Assembly (NCBI GenBank): GCA_013374855.1
Contig: CP055308.1
Span: forward strand, 102,800 to 166,799
DNA length: 64,000 nucleotides
Source: Candidatus Woesebacteria bacterium
Lineage (GTDB): Bacteria; Patescibacteriota; Microgenomatia; UBA8517
Direction: 5' to 3'
Under the pieces are notes generated by a model that was not told the origin of the DNA, ran no database searches, and saw only the letters and a program-made list of their open reading frames with translations. Below are positions 14,522 to 25,935 of the stretch, one piece after another. The translations under genes and the position numbers were made by a program. The first letter of the stretch is position 1. Each line of letters begins with the position of its first letter.

Positions 14522-14648
14522 CTTTCGGCCTTGGCCTATTTTCGCGGTCTGTTGCCAGACAACTATCGTCGGCGCTTAGGCGTTTCACTTCTGAATTCGA
14601 AATGGGATCAGGTGGTTCCGCCTAGCTCTTAAAGACCGAAAGACTTAA
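14522..14648 (-). rRNA. rrf: 5S ribosomal RNA
   Basis: The reverse complement contains CCACCTGATCCCATTTCGAATTCAGAAGTGAAACGCCTAAGCGCCGA, which is the 5S loop B/C consensus. The terminal helix tctttcgg/ccgaaaga closes it. Confidence 0.8.
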
Positions 14649-14813
14649 AACCAAAATTTGCCAAACGGCAAAGCGAAAGAGAAAAAAGGGAAAACCATTT
14701 TAAGGTCTTCGACCAATTCGCACTGGGTAAGCTTAACTCCTTACGGAGCTTCCACCTCCAGCCGAATAACCTCGTATTCTGCGAGGGGTCTTGTGACGAA
14801 TCCTAATCTTGGG

Positions 14814-14849
<36 letters not shown>

Positions 14850-14988
14850 ACAAGGAATGTGGCTACCCGGCATTGCGGCTGACGCCACAACCGGCACACC
14901 AGGGATTCCTCCCTCCTGGTCCTCTCGTACTGAGGAGAGCTCCCCTCAAGATTCAACGCTCCCACCGGATAGAGTCCGAACTGTCTCG

Positions 14989-15023
<35 letters not shown>

Positions 15024-15036
15024 GGGCGAACAGACC

Positions 15037-15067
<31 letters not shown>

Positions 15068-15485
15068 CGGTGAGCCGACATCGAGGTAGCGAACCGCACC
15101 GTCGATATGGACTCTCGGGTGCGACTACTCTGTTATCCCCGGGGTAGCTTTTATCCGTTAAGCTCCGTGCCACCCACATAGCAATCGGAGGATCACTAAG
15201 GCCTGCTTTCGCACCTGCTCGGCCCGTCGGCCTCGCAGTCAAGCCAGCTTATGCCTTTACACTTAAAGCGCGGTTTCCATTCGCGCCAAGCTGACCTTTG
15301 CGCCCCTGCGTTACACTTTAGCAGGGTACCGCCCCAGTAAAACTGCCCATCTAGCACTTTCCCCCAACCTGTTTGCAAGGCTGTCAGGTAAGACTTGAAA
15401 TGTTCCAAAGAGAGGTATTACACTGGTGCCTTAAAGGCTCCCTCCTATTCTCGACAGTTGAAACACCCAAATCAATGCCAAACTG

Positions 15486-15516
<31 letters not shown>

Positions 15517-15584
15517 GTGGGAGTAGGCCGCGTCTTCACAGCCATCGCAATTTCGCCGAGTGAAGGCTTAAGACAGTTGTCAGC

Positions 15585-15625
<41 letters not shown>

Positions 15626-15648
15626 GGCTTCGCTACCGTAGAACAGTT

Positions 15649-16150
15649 CATTTTGTTATCCTGATAAACAGGCCTGTGATTTTACACAGTCTCTACATTT
15701 CTGTAGAGATCGGACTATATTATCTACCTCAAACCTTACAGATTAAGAGGTAGCTTGGCGTATAGTCTCTGAGGATTCCAGAACATCTTGAATCGAATAC
15801 TTTCTTTTGCGTCCCCTATCTTTATTAATTTCCTCTCTAATTTTTAATAATTCGGATAATCCATCTTTTGTAAGATGTTTCTTCTTATACATAATTTTTA
15901 CCGCCCTTTTAAAGAGAGAAAAATTATGTTTTTTGTTACTTGAAAGAAAATTGTATTTTGTAAAAAAAAGGAACAATTTTTTCCTGAAGAGCAGTTGGAT
16001 TTGTAAAATCAGATGTTCTGGTCTTTCCTGCTGATTGTCTCTATTCATCTGATTTTCACTGCCAACGAACATTTAAATCGTACCAGCAGTACAGATGACC
16101 TGCCAAGACTTCTCAGCATACAGCCAAGTTTTACAACTACAATTCTACTT
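15649..16150 (-). other. Group I intron in the 23S rRNA gene at the E. coli U1917 (helix 69) site
   Basis: Exon 1 ends ...GTAACTAT (U) and exon 2 resumes AACTGTTCTACGGTAGCG. The ~502-nt intervening sequence ends in G, is AT-rich, carries an ORF in rRNA sense and has no E. coli counterpart. Confidence 0.7.
15743..16072 (-). CDS. Intron-encoded ORF (109 aa), probably a degenerate or truncated homing-endonuclease-like remnant
   Basis: Basic C-terminus (KHLTKDGLSELLKIREEINKDRGRKRKY) resembling C-terminal regions of LAGLIDADG-type endonucleases. No intact LAGLIDADG motif was found. Confidence 0.35.
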   Translation of the reverse strand: MFVGSENQMNRDNQQERPEHLILQIQLLFRKKLFLFFTKYNFLSSNKKHNFSLFKRAVKIMYKKKHLTKDGLSELLKIREEINKDRGRKRKYSIQDVLESSETIRQATS

Positions 16151-17065
16151 ATAGTTACTGCTGCCGTTTACCGGAGCTTGAGTTCGCAGCGCGTAGCACC
16201 AAATCCCCAACTTACAGCTTGCAACTAACAATCCTTATTGATTGCAAGTTAAGCATTACTTTTGTTGGAAACTTAGTGCTACGCACCGCTCCCCTTAACT
16301 TACCGGCACTGGGCAGGCGTCAGCCCGTATACTTCGGCTTTTCGCCTTTGCACGGACCTGTGTTTTTGATAAACAGTCGGCTGACAGACTTTAGCTTCGC
16401 CCGCCAACAACTTTGCAGCTATTGACGGGAGGACATCTTGCGAACTTACGTCCAGCTTTTTTGCCGAGTTCCTTAAGCCTCCTTCTCTCGCCCGCCTTAG
16501 AGTACTCCTCCAACCCACCTGTGTTGGTTTGCGGTACGGCTTGACTTGAAACTCACTGCGAGCCTTTTTTAAGAAACAGAATGCGCTGAAATCGCCAACA
16601 TCTCTGCTGACTTTGCATCACTGCTTGAATAAACAAACAGACGGATTTTCCAATCTGTTCTTCCTCACAGCTTGCACCCGCTAAATTCACAAGCAGGCTC
16701 CAGACATCCCGTTCCGTCAGCCCCCAGTTGATAGCGTCTCAAGACAAGTACTGGAATTTTAACCAGTTATCCATCGACTACTCTCCACACAAAGTGGAGA
16801 CTTGCCTTAGGCACCGACTAACCCGTCCCCGACGAACGTTGGGACGGAAACCTTGGGTGTTCGGCGGCCCTGATTCTCACAGGGCTTGCTCGCTACTCAT
16901 GCCGGCATTCTCACTTCCAAACGCTCCACCCTGCCTTGCGGCAGAACTTCACCGCATTTGGAACGCTCCCCTACCGCGCTTGTCCAATGAACAAGCACCT
17001 CTGGCTTCGGTGTTCGGCTTATCCTCGATGAATCTTAGGCGCTTTTCCCTTCAACTAGTGAGCTG

Positions 17066-17108
<43 letters not shown>

Positions 17109-17730
17109 AGCTGTCTGAAGAGAAAAACTTCCTTTAAAACTTAGCCGCAACAGAAAAGAAAAACTTTTCTGCCGTTGACAAAAAGTCAAAAACTTAGAGA
17201 CCTTAGCCGAGAGTCTGGGTTGTTTCCCTTTAGTCACATCGGCTTAGCCCGATGTGGCTGTCTACCCACCCGTTATCAGCAGGTATTCGGAGTTTGGTTG
17301 GATTATCTCGGTTGCCCTCGATAACCCATCCAGTATCTCTACCCCCCACTAATTTATGATGGGCACGGTCCCTATAGACCTTTCGGGGAGAACCAGCTAT
17401 CTCCAGATTCGGTTGGCATATTACCCCTATCCACAAGTCATCCCATGGTATTGCAACACCAACGGGTTCGGACCTCCCCCACCAATTACGATGGGTTCAT
17501 CCTGCTCATGGATAGATCATCTGGTTTCGGGTCTGCTACTTGGTACTTGAACGCGCTATTCGCACTCGGTTTCCCTACGCCTTCCCCGCTCAAGGCAGGT
17601 TAAGCTTGCACCAAATAGCAACTCGCCGGCTCATTCTTCAATAGGCACGCTATCACTTGTCAATTAGACAAGCTCTAGCGGTTTGTCCGCAAATGGTTTC
17701 AGTTTCTATTTCACTGGGCGTCCCGCCCTT

Positions 17731-17769
<39 letters not shown>

Positions 17770-18413
17770 TACAGGTTGTATTTAGCCTTGGAGGATGGTT
17801 CCCCCAGCTTCCCACAGTGTATTTGCACCGTGGTACTCAGGAAATCCCAAGGAAATTTATTGCCTTTCGCATACAAGACTTTCACTTTCTATGGTCAGAC
17901 ATTCCAGACTGTTCTGCTAGACAATAAACTCCCCTTATTGGGCTCCTACAACCCCCCAAAAGCTCCCGAAGGAACCTTCGAGGTTTGGGCTTTTCCGCTT
18001 TCGCTCTCCGCTACTGACGGAATCACTATTGTTTTCTCTTCCTCGCCTTACTTAGATGTTTCAGTTCAGACGGTTCCCTCTACACACCTTAATAGGCGCT
18101 CCTAAGAGCGTCACTTGGGGTGTGAGTATACTGCGATAAAGCAGTATGGGTTTCCCCATTCGGACACCGACGGATCACAGCCTTTTGGCGGCTCCCCGAC
18201 GACTTTCGCGGCCTTACGCGTCCTTCTTCGGCAACCTGTACCTAGGCATCCACCATTTGCGTGAGTAGACCTTAAAATATTCGGCCTTCCCATTTTCTCT
18301 TTCGCTTTACCGTTTAATAAAGCGAAAAAAAGACCTCTTTCGTTGTCAATGTGCTGTGGACCATGGGAGAATAGAACTCCCAAACTTTTGGACTTGTCAC
18401 GCTCTTTTCTTAG

Positions 18414-18487
18414 TGGACCTGAGCGGAGTCGAACCGCTGACCTCATCATTGCAAATGATGCGCTCTAACCAACTGAGCTACAGGCCC
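18414..18487 (-). tRNA. tRNA-Ala (anticodon UGC)
   Basis: Cloverleaf GGGCCTGTAGCTCAGTTGG...TTTGCAA...GGTTCGACTCC with a G3:U70 pair. It lies immediately upstream (rRNA sense) of the 23S 5' end. Confidence 0.85.
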
Positions 18488-18786
18488 ATACTAAGACAGG
18501 CGCATGCAAGGAAAAGTTTAGCTATCCAAGCTAACGGACCATGTGTTTAAAGTGCAACAAAAAACCGGCCTTTTGAGCCGGTTGCCTAATAAAACAAATA
18601 ATATTCAAAATCACACGCCACAAAAAGGACGTAAATTTTTTGTAATATATTTAATTGCTTTCATTAAAAAACGCAAACCTGCTCAAAAAGGCAAGTGTCA
18701 TTATAATATAGAAAAGCAAATTTAGTCAAGAGCAAAAAAGTTTGCTTAAAAAATTTTTTTATCATAAAATAAGAATGCCGTTAAAA

Positions 18787-18859
18787 GGGCACGTAGTTCA
18801 CCGGCAGAACGCTTACCTGATAAGTAAGAAGTAGATGGTTCGACTCCATCCGTGCCCAC
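18787..18859 (+). tRNA. tRNA-Ile (anticodon GAU)
   Basis: GGGCACGTAGTTCACCGGCAGAACGCTTACCTGATAAGTAAG...GGTTCGACTCCATCCGTGCCCA. It is on the opposite strand to the rRNA genes. Confidence 0.75.
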
Positions 18860-19422
18860 AATTCTGGAGAAAAAAGATTATTGGGATGACAATATTTCTT
18901 AAACTAGAGTAAAATATTTTCTAAATTCATTCCGATTATAAAATTTAAAAAAATAAATGAATAAAAATCTTTTCAAAATGTTTTTTATTTCTCTTGTTAC
19001 GCTGTTTTTAATTTTTATAATCTCATTGCTTTACGGAATTTTTGTTATACCTAAAATAAACAAGAATGTTATATGCATTCAATCATTATCGCAGTCTTGC
19101 TTCCTTGGAAGTCCCATCTGTTTTAATTTTCCCAATCCCTGTTTCACACCACCCCTTTGGTTTCCTGCAAAGAAAATAAAATGAGAAATTATTAAGGTAA
19201 GATTTTGAGTAGGTGAAAACACCAGTAAACCAACCCGACGGTCACAACCCCATCTGTCAATTAGTCCGAATAAGCTACGAAAGAGATTAAAAATTGAAGA
19301 AAATGCTAACGCACCAAGAATTAAGTGAAAACACAAACACCCTTTTACTTGTTGAAAAGAAAGAAAAAAGATATAATTAAGCTGTCAGTCTGCTTAGTTC
19401 TGTTTTCCAACCTAAAGTTAAA

Positions 19423-20786
19423 ATGACAAAAGACATCGTCAAAGAAGACTTGCAAGAAAAAGAAAATTTCTCGCCAGCAACTCAAGTCAATAATAATAAC
19501 GATAAGCTTAGTAATCAGAATAAGCCATTAAGAGAGGTTCTATTTATTATTGCTGAAGTCGCTATACTTTCCGCAACTTTTTATGCAGGGATGAAATTTT
19601 CTGCAAAAAAGGAAATTGCAAAACCACCCGTATCCGAAACAAACGAACAATTTATCCCTACACCTACCATCATGCCCTCAGAAAGTGATGAGGAAATATC
19701 AATACCATCAGTACCACTAAAACCAAATGCCATTTCACCATCAATATTCGGTTTTACAAAAACCATTGATCTTCCGGGCATGGGTGTGTCCGAGCTGCTT
19801 TTCCCAAAAACACCAAAACTAGTTACTCTGACCCAAAAACCCATTATTCAGCAGATTTACCAGACGGCTCGATAATTTTTTATATTTATCATTATCAGGG
19901 AGGTTCCCGTCGCACTTGGTTTAGAGATAATATTGGATATCCCGAAAGCATCTTTGAACCCTTTGGAGCAAATAATCATCAAGGTTATTTAAGCATTCCC
20001 AAAGATTCTAGTGAAAATACAGGCACCTTTTATTATTTTGCAGTTGTTAGAACAAATGAGATGCTTGTAATTCAATACAACCCAGGAATAGACAACAACC
20101 AAAATAATCTAGACAAATTTAAAAGCTTTATTTCCACTGTTCAAGTAATTGAACCAAATTTACAGGGTATAGAAAGATCCGATCAAACGAAGAATGAAAT
20201 TGAACGCTGGAGTAGTATCAGAAAAACGATTTGGGAACAGCCAGATTTAGGATTTCGAATAACTGCACCTGAGTGGGTTGAATCAAGGGTTCCAAAGCCA
20301 AGAAAGGATGATGGAACAGTAGAATATACAGAATGGTCAAGAACTTATCCAGAGGCTGAAACTACTAAATTTAACTACGGTGGGGAAGAAACAGATGGTA
20401 TTGTTGTAAAAGGGCTTCTATTTGGCGGGGCACATATCGTATTCTTAAACTCAAAATATAATGGTAAAACTTTTAACGACGTAGCTAACAGCCTATTACT
20501 AGGAGCTGGCAACTGTTCAGTTGGGTGGAAAAATTCGAAATCAGAATGCGGAGATATTCATCCAGACTACTGTTATACAAAAGAAGAAGTTATACAAAAT
20601 TTAGTTGTAAGAAAAACTTCCAAATTTGGACCTTATACAGGCCAGCTAAGGGGAATAAGAGCTAGTTTTTCCCAAAAGAGAGACTGTCGCGGAGAAAACA
20701 TTTGGATTATTAAAGCAAAGAATGGGCAATTTGTTATCTCGACAATTTATCCAGATAGTGAAAAAATCAGATTAGAAGGATTTTAA
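19423..20786 (+). pseudogene. Frameshifted copy of the Cys-rich membrane-anchored protein gene at 27435..28781
   Basis: Two ORFs (19423..19875, 20061..20786) are collinear with the intact 460-aa paralog. The intervening 185 bp translates in a third frame to the homologous FYIYHYQGGSRR...VVRTNEMLV. DNA alignment shows a ~2-nt indel near 19805. Confidence 0.65.
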
Positions 20787-20956
20787 TTTTCTAAAACTCT
20801 ATTTTACAAAACAAAAATAACTATAAAAAACTACAGAGGAAAATTTAAATTAATCCAATTTATTAGGTTACACTAAATTAATTTATCCTAAAACATCGCC
20901 CACGCCAAAACCGACCCATATTAATGTATTAACACATTAATACAAAAAAAGAAAGT

Positions 20957-21943
20957 TCACTCATACCCATTAGGGTTTTTAGAGTGCCAGAGATAAGCAG
21001 TTCTTACTATATCATATATATTATATTTTGGTTTCCAGCCAAGCTCTTTTCTAATCTTTTGATTTGAAGCCCAAAGAGAATCAGCATCTCCTTCCCTTCT
21101 TGGACCAAATTTGTAATTAAGCTTCAGCCCTGTTGTCTCCTCCACAATATCAATCAGCTCTTTATTCGTTGTACCACTACCACACCCAACATTGTAAAAA
21201 CCACTATTTCCGCCACTTTCTAAGAATTCAAGAGCCCTAACATGAGCATCCGCCAAATCAAGAACATGAACATAATCCCTCTCACACGTCCCATCTCTTG
21301 TTTTGTAGTCATTTCCAAAAATAGTAAATGAGGAATCTGACAAGGCAGCCTTTAACATAAGCGGTATAATATGACTTTCGTTGGGATGATCCTCACCCAA
21401 TTCCCCGTCTAAAGATGCGCCAGCTGCATTAAAATATCGCAAGGAAACAAACTCAAGAACAGAAGCCCTGTTCATCCAACTCAAAATTTTTTCTATCATC
21501 AACTTTGTCTCACCATAAGGATTAAGAGGGTTCCTTGGGTCATCTTCTTTTATGGGCAGACTCACGGGGTTTCCATAAACACCAGCAGAGGAAGAGAAAA
21601 CTATCTTCCCAACCCCAAAAACCTTCATTGCATCAAACAAATTAAGACTCAAACCAACATTTGTATTAAAGTAAAGTGAAGGCTCCCTCATTGACTCCCC
21701 CATCTGGATAAGACCCCCTAAATGAATAACACTATCTGGATTTTCTTTTTCAAAAACTTGTAAAAGCTTTTCCTTTTCCTTCAAGATATCAATCTTATAA
21801 AACCTAAATCCCTCTACTGCTTTTTCATGGCCTGAAGAGAAATTATCAACTACAAAAGGGTCATATCCTGATTTTTCAAGCGCTCTTATTACAAAACCTC
21901 CTATATACCCAGCCCCTCCTGCAACAAGAACCTTTTTGCCCAT
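20957..21943 (-). CDS. galE: UDP-glucose 4-epimerase / NAD-dependent epimerase
   Basis: N-terminal GGAGYIGGFV Rossmann motif and GalE-like collinearity (YxxxK region, ...HVLDLADAH...). Confidence 0.85.
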   Translation of the reverse strand: MGKKVLVAGGAGYIGGFVIRALEKSGYDPFVVDNFSSGHEKAVEGFRFYKIDILKEKEKLLQVFEKENPDSVIHLGGLIQMGESMREPSLYFNTNVGLSLNLFDAMKVFGVGKIVFSSSAGVYGNPVSLPIKEDDPRNPLNPYGETKLMIEKILSWMNRASVLEFVSLRYFNAAGASLDGELGEDHPNESHIIPLMLKAALSDSSFTIFGNDYKTRDGTCERDYVHVLDLADAHVRALEFLESGGNSGFYNVGCGSGTTNKELIDIVEETTGLKLNYKFGPRREGDADSLWASNQKIRKELGWKPKYNIYDIVRTAYLWHSKNPNGYE

Positions 21944-22043
21944 AAAACAATTATATCAATCAATTTCCTAAATCAAACTCGCAAAAGAAAGCCTTTGCAG
22001 AAAAAAGATAAAATTATGCACTAACTGCTATAATTAGTAGTGT

Positions 22044-24230
22044 ATGTTCCAAAATCAAGATGAAATAATCACATTAAATCTTAAAGTTCCAAGAAACAGC
22101 AAGACAACACCCGAAGCCTGCCAAACCTTTCTGTCTGCCCTGACCCAAATAAACGCAGTCTCTTTTTGGGAGAGACTAATAGGCACTATTGTTCAACCCC
22201 TTGCTTTAGAAATAGCTCTTGTTAATCAGCAGATAAGATTCCAGATCTCGGCAGACAAAGACATTACCCCTTTTGTCGCAACCCAGCTTCAATCAAACTA
22301 CCCTCTTGTAATAATAGAAAAAACAGCAGACCCTCTTTCCTACCCACAAGTTTATAACATTAATATTAATCCTCTTGAAATAATTTCTCTTTCTCTAAAA
22401 AAAGGAAATTACTATCCAATAGCAACATATGACACTTTTTCTGATATAGATCCCCTGTCATCTATTCTATCTATTCTTTCAAAATCAACACCTGATACGT
22501 TTGCAATAATTCAATTTGCTCTTGAGGCAACAGATTCCTCTTGGCAACAAAAAGGAGCGTCTTTTGCTGAAAAGGGAACAAAAAATGACGATGGTACTTA
22601 TTCCCCAAGAGCGGACAAAAATATAATAAATGATAAAATTTCTTATACAGGTTTTAGAACCTCAATAAGAATTGCTTCAAACCAAACTAGAACCGTAAAA
22701 GAGTTGGCTAGTGCCTTCGGAGTTTTTGCAAGAGCCGACGGAAATTCTTTTAAAACCGAAAAAAGAAAATTTACGTTTTTAAGAACCGACAACAGAAAAG
22801 ATCTGATTTTAAGAAAAGTTAAAGGAAATCAAATACTAAATATAAAAGAACTTGCTACCCTATGGCATTTGCCTTCAGAAAAAATAAAAGTACCAGGAAT
22901 TGGCTGGGGACATTCCGTTTTATACGAACCGCCAGAAAATCTACCAGTTGCCACAGCGGATGAGGAGACAAAAAAAGATATAAACTTCTTTGCCAAAACC
23001 ATCTTTAGAAACCAAGAAGTGATTTTTGGAATAAAAAGCAAAGACAGAACCCGACACATCTGGGCAGTTGGAAAAACAGGAACAGGTAAATCAACAATGA
23101 TGGCAAATATGATTATTGATGACTTTAAAAAAGACCGGGGGGTTGCATATATTGACCCTCATGGAGACACTTGTGACATTCTTCTTGATTACATCCCCTC
23201 ACACAGAATAAATGATACTGTTTATTTCGACCCATCAGATCGAGATTTTCCTATTGTAATAAATCCGCTTGAGGTTACAAACAAAGAAGAGGCAGAACTT
23301 GTAGTCTCAGGGCTAATGAGTATTTTTACCAAAGTATGGGCAAATGTTTGGTCTGCCAGAATGGAATACATCCTGCGAAATTCTTTTATGAGCTTAACTG
23401 AATATCCAAACGCCACACTTGCTGATGTATTAAAAATACTTGTTGATAAAGGTTTCAGAAACAATGTCTTGCAAAAAGTTACAGACCCAAGTTTGATTCA
23501 TTTCTGGAAAGAAGAGTATGAAAAAATGCCTGACAGGCTTCAAAAAGAAGCCATCGCTCCAATTCAAAACAAGGTTGGACAATTTGTAACATCCCCACTT
23601 ATAAGGAGAATAATCGGCAAGCCAAAAAGCACCCTTTCTCTTGAAAAAGTAATAAATGAGGGAAAAATACTTCTTGCCAACCTTTCCCAAGGAAGGCTGG
23701 GTGAAGACAATGCAAACCTGCTTGGAGCGATGCTTATTACTCAAATTCAGCTTGCTGCGATGAGGCGTGTAAACATACCTGTAGAACAAAGGCGACCTTT
23801 CTACTTATTTGTTGACGAGTTTCAAAATTTTGCCACAGACTCATTTATAAAAATACTTTCAGAGATAAGAAAATACAATCTTTCCCTCACTCTTGCCAAT
23901 CAGTATATGGCACAAATTCCAGAAAATGTAAGAAAAGCAATTCTTGGAAACGCTGGAACAATAATCACCTTTTCTGCGGGGGCAGAAGATGCATCTGTTT
24001 TAAGCAAGGAATTTGCCGAGGTTTTCTCCGAAAACGATCTTGTTAATCTTGCCAATTACCAAATAGCAATAAAGCTAATGATTGACGGCCATTCTTCCCG
24101 ACCTTTTCTTGCACAAACATTGCCACTTCCCCTTTCAAAAAACCAAAACAGAGAAAAAATAATAGAAGTCTCACGACAGCGATACGCAGATAAAACAGCA
24201 GGTATTAGGCATAACTTCTCAACAAACTAA
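22044..24230 (+). CDS. VirD4/TraG/TrwB-like P-loop ATPase (type IV secretion system DNA-binding-domain protein family). This copy has no N-terminal TM.
   Basis: Walker A AVGKTGTGKST and Walker B FYLFVDEFQNFA. 728 aa. It is a paralog of 61051..63369. Confidence 0.55.
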   Translation: MFQNQDEIITLNLKVPRNSKTTPEACQTFLSALTQINAVSFWERLIGTIVQPLALEIALVNQQIRFQISADKDITPFVATQLQSNYPLVIIEKTADPLSYPQVYNININPLEIISLSLKKGNYYPIATYDTFSDIDPLSSILSILSKSTPDTFAIIQFALEATDSSWQQKGASFAEKGTKNDDGTYSPRADKNIINDKISYTGFRTSIRIASNQTRTVKELASAFGVFARADGNSFKTEKRKFTFLRTDNRKDLILRKVKGNQILNIKELATLWHLPSEKIKVPGIGWGHSVLYEPPENLPVATADEETKKDINFFAKTIFRNQEVIFGIKSKDRTRHIWAVGKTGTGKSTMMANMIIDDFKKDRGVAYIDPHGDTCDILLDYIPSHRINDTVYFDPSDRDFPIVINPLEVTNKEEAELVVSGLMSIFTKVWANVWSARMEYILRNSFMSLTEYPNATLADVLKILVDKGFRNNVLQKVTDPSLIHFWKEEYEKMPDRLQKEAIAPIQNKVGQFVTSPLIRRIIGKPKSTLSLEKVINEGKILLANLSQGRLGEDNANLLGAMLITQIQLAAMRRVNIPVEQRRPFYLFVDEFQNFATDSFIKILSEIRKYNLSLTLANQYMAQIPENVRKAILGNAGTIITFSAGAEDASVLSKEFAEVFSENDLVNLANYQIAIKLMIDGHSSRPFLAQTLPLPLSKNQNREKIIEVSRQRYADKTAGIRHNFSTN

Positions 24231-24440
24231 CAAAAATAACACAACAGAAAATAGCCAATTTTTTTATTACCAGTCGAAATTTGAGGTTCTACCGCAAAGA
24301 CCTAAAACTTAAAATTTAGTTTTCAAAAGACTGTTAAACACAATTGAAAATTCAATACCCAGATTATGGCTGGAAGAGGTGCCCCGTTTTTTAAAAGAAA
24401 AACGGCGACATTAAAACTTGGGTGTATAAACACTCCTTAG

Positions 24441-25935
<1,495 letters not shown>

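Follow-up and report, generated by a model that had tools for sequence, protein, structure and literature searches.

The single 23S rRNA gene found within the 64-kb window, by which we mean the whole stretch of 64,000 nucleotides analysed here, is most probably interrupted at helix 69 by a 502-nt group I intron whose ribozyme has been kept while the homing endonuclease gene inside it has been broken by a deletion. We put the probability of this explanation as a whole, a group I intron of the L1917 lineage without P2, with a complex P5 arm and with an ORF in the P6 loop, at about 0.88. For a working ribosome, the 23S rRNA of this genome would have to be spliced at helix 69. The window also offers a clean, datable snapshot of an endonuclease gene midway between intact and lost, in an intron whose ribozyme is still under selection; beyond annotation, its significance is otherwise small.

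A complete bacterial LSU rRNA gene was identified with Rfam at 14697..18276 on the reverse strand, with a length of 3580 nt versus the 2925 positions of the model. Alignment to E. coli K-12 rrlH (locus L083) with MAFFT placed the 502-nt insertion, 15649..16150, directly after E. coli position 1917, that is, between U1917 and A1918 in the loop of helix 69. When the two flanks are joined they align locally as ...GUAACUAU(1917) followed by A(1918)ACUGUUCUACGGUAGCG and, over a longer stretch, as ...GGCAGCAGUAACUAU(1917) followed by A(1918)ACUGUUCUACGGUAGCGAA, which is the helix 69 loop; this loop is conserved right to the junction on either side. The insert has a G+C content of 33.7%, versus 48.9% for the 23S gene. 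Its first nucleotide is A at 16150 and its terminal (omega) nucleotide is G at 15649, aligned to a G in 45 of 46 homologues. An earlier note on this DNA had described a 23S gene of ~3.59 kb carrying an AT-rich insert of ~500 nt that lacks an E. coli counterpart and ends in G, and had placed this insert at the U1917/helix-69 site; each of these points holds, and the boundaries given there are exact to the nucleotide. The features of the intron and its flanks are collected in Table 1.

Table 1. Features of the L1917 intron, its exon flanks and its gene remnant (window positions; RNA letters in the sense of the rRNA)
Feature	Position	Strand	Basis or remark
Whole group I intron, 502 nt	15649..16150	(-)	MAFFT, junction alignment, homologous boundaries in 45 related loci
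P1 5' exon strand AACUAU, ending in U1917	16151..16156	(-)	Pairs present in 45-46 of 46 sequences
Internal guide sequence GUAGUU, P1 3' strand	16135..16140	(-)	Pairs with AACUAU, 6 bp
P3 5' strand CUUGGC	16123..16128	(-)	Pairs with 15754..15759; 100% of cells paired
P4, UGCUGA with UCAGCA	16113..16118 + 16029..16034	(-)	Within P4-P5 domain 16029..16118
P5, GUCUU with GAGAC	16105..16109 + 16037..16041	(-)	Fold and covariation
Extended P5a-c arm with A-rich bulge (AAAAU)	16045..16098	(-)	Fold
P6, GGA with UCC	16026..16028 + 15773..15775	(-)	A-U to G-C in 3 sequences
P6a, CCAGAACAUCU with AGAUGUUCUGG	16011..16021 + 15778..15788	(-)	11 of 11 bp in the window copy
J6/7 UCA, P7 5' strand GACUAUA (15761..15767) and P3 3' strand GCCAAG (15754..15759)	15754..15772	(-)	Rfam, pair counts
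P8 hairpin, CUACCUC ... GAGGUAG	15724..15753	(-)	Double-sided changes in 7 of 7 pairs
P7 3' strand UAUAGUC	15713..15719	(-)	Pairs with 15761..15767; pseudoknotted with P3
P9 hairpin, GAAA tetraloop	15691..15708	(-)	Double-sided changes in 6 of 7 pairs; 99.7% of cells paired
P9a peripheral hairpin	15674..15689	(-)	U-A to C-G versus L001
P9b peripheral hairpin	15660..15672	(-)	In P9 region 15660..15708
3' exon start, AACUGUUCUACGGUAGCGA	15630..15648	(-)	Begins at A1918, completes helix 69
LAGLIDADG_1 gene remnant, 101 codons and stop	15743..16048	(-)	Homologues, DNA alignment with L001
Deletion junction, just past the P6a 5' strand	16011..16014	(-)	Position ambiguous by ~3 nt
U8 run with +1 insertion (G+U6 in L001)	15962..15969	(-)	Frame returned to that of the C-terminal half

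Four smaller expansions relative to E. coli are present elsewhere in the 23S gene, none of them intron-like: ~81 nt after Ec1877 (16191..16271), ~44 nt after Ec279 (17933..17976), ~42 nt after Ec1010 (17152..17193) and 22 nt after Ec155 (18101..18122). The ends of the 81-nt insert can be paired by eye, which suggests a long hairpin. The 5S rRNA gene (14523..14640) lies downstream of the 23S gene and a tRNA-Ala gene upstream of it. The rRNA genes are unlinked, with the 16S gene at 24441..25934 (-), ~6 kb upstream of the tRNA-Ala/23S/5S group (region 14523..25934). The gap between 16S and 23S holds tRNA-Ile(GAT) at 18787..18859, on the strand opposite to the rRNA genes, as well as an NAD-dependent epimerase gene (20957..21943, (-)), a gene for a VirD4/TraG/TrwB-like coupling ATPase (22044..24230, (+)) and two ORFs without a Pfam match. 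Exact look-ups of the intron ORF and of two other window proteins found no contig; the epimerase was located only on a 4.9-kb Logan contig of SRR6186653, a sample in which DNA of this organism is thus present. Opposite the 23S gene and its intron run four antisense ORFs of 71-138 aa (15373..15753, 15807..16034, 16013..16228 and 16728..17144, all (+)), which we take to be spurious and not for annotation as genes.

The group I identity of the insert is indicated by a curated RNA model, by the anatomy of its sequence and by covariation. In a 701-nt search, Rfam RF00028 (Intron_gpI) matched the window copy at 15691..15858 with 39 bits (E = 2.2e-8), under the gathering threshold of 50 bits; the aligned part is the J6/7-P7-P3'-P8-P7'-P9 block. 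This score is low because a 264-nt gene remnant separates P4-P6 from P7-P9, and Rfam's curated threshold thus misses this intron. The closest relative, a 723-nt intron on contig FWPU01019374.1 (hereafter L001) that is ~90% identical to the window intron and contains the gene of an intact endonuclease (P0002), scores 56.5 bits, and the ORF-less intron of locus L014 scores 79.1 bits. Both exceed the 50-bit cut-off and, therefore, the family is a group I intron family at the curated threshold. Within the aligned block, J6/7-P7 matches the Rfam consensus UCAaAGACUAAAcG, while UCAGAGACUAUACG and AUAUAGUCCGA match the consensus with high posterior probability and do not vary within the family.

Covariation was evaluated on a manually modelled structure in alignment A3, which comprises 46 sequences (45 related loci and the window). 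Standard pairs make up 90.7% of the pair cells, versus 31-41% in controls in which the 3' partners were slid by 1-3 columns, and the covariation score is 0.398 versus ~0.06 in the controls; 0 of 500 shuffles reach 0.398. Compensatory changes occur in P3, P4, P5, P6, P8 and P9; P1 and P7 are paired and do not vary. In P1, all 46 sequences have a U•G pair at the 5' splice site, and P7, the predicted guanosine-binding helix, is paired in 95% of cells. Changes on both sides affect five of the six P3 pairs, 11 of the 46 sequences covary in P4 from U-A to G-C, P5 covaries as well, and in P8 a C-G to U-A change is seen even against L001. P2 is absent, the spacer between P1 and P3 consisting of GUAAAA only. 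The endonuclease gene lies in the loop closed by P6 and P6a, at a place where ORF-less relatives have a short hairpin. The 50.7% of P6a cells that are paired in the alignment reflect its generally poor alignment by MAFFT, which in the window copy split this helix over the deletion gap; P6a is instead supported by the window's own 11-bp pairing, by covariation visible to the eye at a few loci and by the short hairpins of the ORF-less relatives. P10 is weak in the window copy and in L001, where two or three pairs are possible; in relatives at a greater distance it has 5-6 bp and covaries with the exon (such as ACGGUU with AACCGU in L017). An unconstrained minimum-free-energy fold paired the P7 5' strand partly with the region after P3, and only helices supported by the family were kept.

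The proposal of a group I intron in the earlier note is thus borne out by the U•G pair in P1, the omega G, the covarying helices, the match of P7 to Rfam and the close relatives that pass the threshold, and the fold contains a P3-P9 core with a P3/P7 pseudoknot. This core, together with the LAGLIDADG_1 homology described below, rules out an RNase III-type intervening sequence as well as a group II intron.

A 109-aa ORF at 15743..16072 (-), which the earlier note had reported, does exist, but its start at 16072 does not stand: the ATG there is incidental and missing from L001, and the ancestral start is the ATG at 16048..16046 (MNRDNQQ...), which leaves 101 codons. A Pfam search gave no LAGLIDADG match to the 109-aa ORF even at E values up to 10, and a WH_MCM3_C match at E = 0.19 is meaningless. 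In a large protein collection, the ORF matches 26 proteins of 122-183 aa, 25 of which are annotated PF00961 (LAGLIDADG_1), with 47-82% identity to these 25 and E values down to 3.9e-38; the named sources of the matching proteins include Woesebacteria and Jorgensenbacteria. The best match (P0002, 177 aa, 82% identity) is a single-motif LAGLIDADG_1 protein that itself matches the Pfam domain at 1.3e-21 over residues 26-123. The LAGLIDADG family is recovered through homologues though not through the Pfam profile, and this homology rules out a GIY-YIG origin. The likeness of the C-terminus to the tail of LAGLIDADG endonucleases, also remarked on earlier, extends over ~80 residues that are 60-82% identical to intact LAGLIDADG_1 proteins of 162-183 aa.

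Much of what is left of the gene is written in the same nucleotides as the ribozyme. The N-terminal codons overlap P5'/P4'/P6/P6a, and the C-terminal codons (DVLESSETIRQATS) overlap P6a'/P6'/J6-7/P7/P3'/P8, with the stop codon UAA (15743..15745) in loop L8. The N-terminal peptide MNRDNQQERP (16011..16048) is encoded by P5'/J5-4/P4'/P6/P6a and the C-terminal peptide DVLESSETIRQ (15754..15790) by P6a'/P6'/J6-7/P7/P3'; both are conserved in the endonuclease subfamily. These terminal peptides are well preserved in the remnant because their nucleotides serve a second use as ribozyme helices. Judged by its homologues, the 109-aa ORF is a remnant of a LAGLIDADG_1 homing endonuclease of the 177-aa type and not a functional member of that family, and it should not be annotated as protein-coding.

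The lesion itself can be read from the comparison with L001. The window intron has a 223-nt deletion relative to L001 (pairwise alignment A1, columns 190-412; also in A3). The lost codons, ~18-92, contain the LAGLIDADG motif GWYFAGFVDGEGSF and the greater part of the Pfam domain. The gap is clean, with well-aligned flanks and without long bounding repeats. Together with the 1-nt insertion in the U-run, the net loss versus L001 is 222 nt, and the reading frame is shifted over the 14 codons that separate the two lesions: upstream of the U-run, the expected NPTALQEKIVPFF appears in another frame of the three-frame translation. The earlier note's description of a degenerate ORF without the catalytic motif is explained by these two changes. 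In the retained C-terminal codons, the window copy differs from L001 by 14 synonymous and seven amino-acid changes, as well as in the stop codon; therefore, most of the divergence from L001 took place under selection on the protein. From this, we suggest that the deletion is recent, and the activity of the endonuclease has presumably been lost in the window copy.

A net change of -222 nt is a multiple of three, so that a single ORF still runs from the native start through the C-terminal half to the native stop. This could mean that the 101-aa remnant is expressed and functional, for instance as an RNA-binding splicing helper, and that selection kept its frame through the +1 insertion. We consider this extremely unlikely. 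An in-frame net outcome has a one-in-three chance, 14 codons remain out of frame between the lesions, the remnant lacks the LAGLIDADG helix and most of the domain core, and the terminal codons are conserved as ribozyme helices rather than for the protein.

The ribozyme core of the window intron shows no decay. Outside the deletion, it departs from columns conserved in at least 90% of the family at 5 of ~147 positions. One departure converts a G•U to an A-U pair in P4 and strengthens this helix; another leaves L9 a GNRA loop; and two lie in joining regions and are shared with family members that have an intact gene (L054 and L072). The remaining one changes a glycine conserved in at least 90% of the family to aspartate, at a site that serves the protein only and has no role in the RNA.

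This last substitution also bears on the quality of the assembly. The deletion allele is known from a single assembled contig only: its junction has no exact match in JGI metagenome contigs, where the 5' junction common to the window and L001 is matched only by L001's own contig. The +1 change moreover sits in a homopolymer run, and it has been cautioned that shortened endonuclease genes may be artefacts (PMC11270868). It could accordingly be argued that the deletion and frameshift arose in sequencing or assembly, and that the real intron is intact, ~725 nt long and in possession of a functional endonuclease gene. Against this stand the clean 223-nt gap with its well-aligned flanks and lack of long bounding repeats, and the glycine-to-aspartate change, which is expected under relaxed selection on the protein; we find an artefact very unlikely.

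Another alternative is that the insertion is not cleanly ligated out. It might be retained in mature 23S rRNA as an expansion of helix 69, or be removed without ligation to leave a fragmented 23S rRNA. The Simkania L1931 intron, a group I intron of bacterial 23S rRNA, is reported as unspliced in the title of a reference cited in PMC11270868, and in the window copy the endonuclease is gone together with any maturase help it gave. If true, helix 69 would be interrupted, fragmented or expanded, with an altered B2a intersubunit bridge, which would be remarkable. We nevertheless regard this as very unlikely, since conservation and covariation extend to the full catalytic core, the U•G pair and the terminal G, the window copy is without core decay, the helix 69 loop is conserved on both sides and would be disrupted by a 502-nt insert, and published work on the CPR describes rRNA insertions as being removed from transcripts (PMC11270868).

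The intact core instead suggests that the window intron is actually spliced, and that it would need no protein for this. In the mechanism we propose, the transcript would fold into the P3-P9 core, and exogenous guanosine bound in P7 would attack the phosphodiester after U1917, which would be held in P1 by the guide sequence GUAGUU via the U•G wobble. The freed 3'-OH of U1917 would then attack after the terminal G (15649), joining U1917 to A1918 and restoring helix 69. The predicted ligated junction is GUAACUAU joined to AACUGUUC (with longer flanks, ...CAGUAACUAU joined to AACUGUUCUACGG), and the intron-less L1917 target, written as DNA, would be GCAGUAACUAUAACUGUUCUACGG.

The relatives of the window intron place it among several states of the same element. 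One genome per species was scanned with protein guidance, which gave 80 loci, almost all of them in Patescibacteria. This agrees with the CPR context that the earlier note had mentioned for rRNA introns: all close relatives are Patescibacteria MAGs. At 45 of the 80 loci, the flanks GUAACUAU and AAC.G..CUA.GGU enclose an intron of 696-814 nt, and the intact relatives encode proteins of 162-183 aa. The nearest relatives of the 23S gene and intron are L001, with 94% identity in exon 1, and then Ca. Microgenomatus and Woesebacteria at ~72-73%, which makes the genome a member of the Patescibacteria (CPR) that is probably Microgenomates/Woesebacteria-like. Among 110 intron cores, a sample biased toward intact genes, P4'/P6 and J6/7 lie 17-44 nt apart in the 27 that have no ORF and 455-550 nt apart in the 80 that hold a full gene; in the window their distance is 264 nt. 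Outliers are 901 nt, probably spanning two introns, and 365 nt in L060, which is possibly spurious and is the only intermediate in this sample besides the window. Natural ORF-less L1917 introns occur in L014 (866..1131, 266 nt) and L049 (2653..2889, 237 nt), where a short hairpin takes the position of the endonuclease gene. Full, partly deleted and ORF-less introns all occur at the L1917 site, and the window copy is the intermediate.

L1917 introns with LAGLIDADG genes were described from Synechococcus sp. C9 (743 nt, 181-aa endonuclease) and Thermotoga subterranea (774 nt, 168-aa endonuclease) (Haugen et al. 2007, PMC1995217), with an architecture that lacks P2, has a complex P5 and carries the ORF from P6 through P7, P3 and P8 (PMC1995217). 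Compared with these by description, the window intron shares the site, the absence of P2 and the complex P5, and its ORF likewise lies in P6 through P7, P3 and P8; it differs in its length of 502 nt and in a gene that is without a LAGLIDADG motif after the 223-nt deletion. In the CPR subgroup to which the window intron belongs, the frame starts earlier than in the published L1917 ORFs, in the 3' strands of P5a/P5/P4 rather than in P6, and stops in L8, whereas the published ORFs stop in P9.

In a survey of CPR rRNA genes, 82% of the 23S genes had insertions (Tsurumaki et al. 2024, PMC11270868), among them a class at position 1917, '23IS6', that encodes LAGLIDADG_1 (PMC11270868). Versions with ORFs, without ORFs and with 'degenerate ORFs with large deletions' were reported, their non-ORF regions being highly similar, and a cyclic homing model served to interpret them (PMC11270868). 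The window intron agrees with '23IS6' in clade, site, protein family, group I-like RNA and pattern of ORF states; there is no categorical difference, and what the window resolves is the exact lesion and a close intact relative. The window intron is a further instance of a published phenomenon (PMC1995217, PMC11270868).

The life cycle of homing endonucleases, as outlined in references cited in PMC11270868, consists of invasion, fixation, degeneration and loss. It is a model rather than a family, and the window supplies an intermediate stage of it: full, partly deleted and ORF-less versions coexist, and the ribozyme is kept while the gene decays. We propose that the intron first spread by homing, with the P6a loop encoding the single-motif LAGLIDADG_1 endonuclease, ~175 aa long, that drove it. 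The ancestral enzyme, whose nearest solved relatives are I-SmaMI and I-OnuI-type enzymes, would have been homodimeric and would have cut intron-less alleles at L1917. The 223-nt deletion would then have destroyed the gene by taking out the helix for catalysis and dimerisation as well as the DNA-binding sheet, while the +1 insertion in the U-run would merely happen to keep the frame open. The intron would now be immobile, with its removal relying on the ribozyme plus any host factors, and with a dead endonuclease it would therefore be inherited vertically only. The window intron would thus represent the 'degeneration' stage of the gain-degeneration-loss cycle.

Outside the CPR, Raghavan and colleagues reportedly described group I introns in the 23S rRNA of Coxiella burnetii in 2007, one of which is said to be named Cbu.L1917. 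By that description, these and the window intron are all group I introns of bacterial 23S rRNA in the helix 69 region, in different phyla.

In many related Patescibacteria, the 23S gene contains a further group I core that is mostly without an ORF and lies ~15 nt downstream of the L1917 intron, at an L1931-like site (for example, L064 3577..3851, and also L037, L029, L025 and L060). This core shares the AAUCAGCAGGAAAG P4'/P6 motif with the L1917 intron; the 23S gene of the window has no second intron of the L1931-like kind. We also observed the CPR-type L1917 intron with its endonuclease on contigs titled as MAGs of uncultured Pseudomonadales, Gammaproteobacteria, Planctomycetia and Bdellovibrionales (including loci L005, L007, L008, L011, L022 and L024), which are probably mislabelled or mis-binned Patescibacteria.
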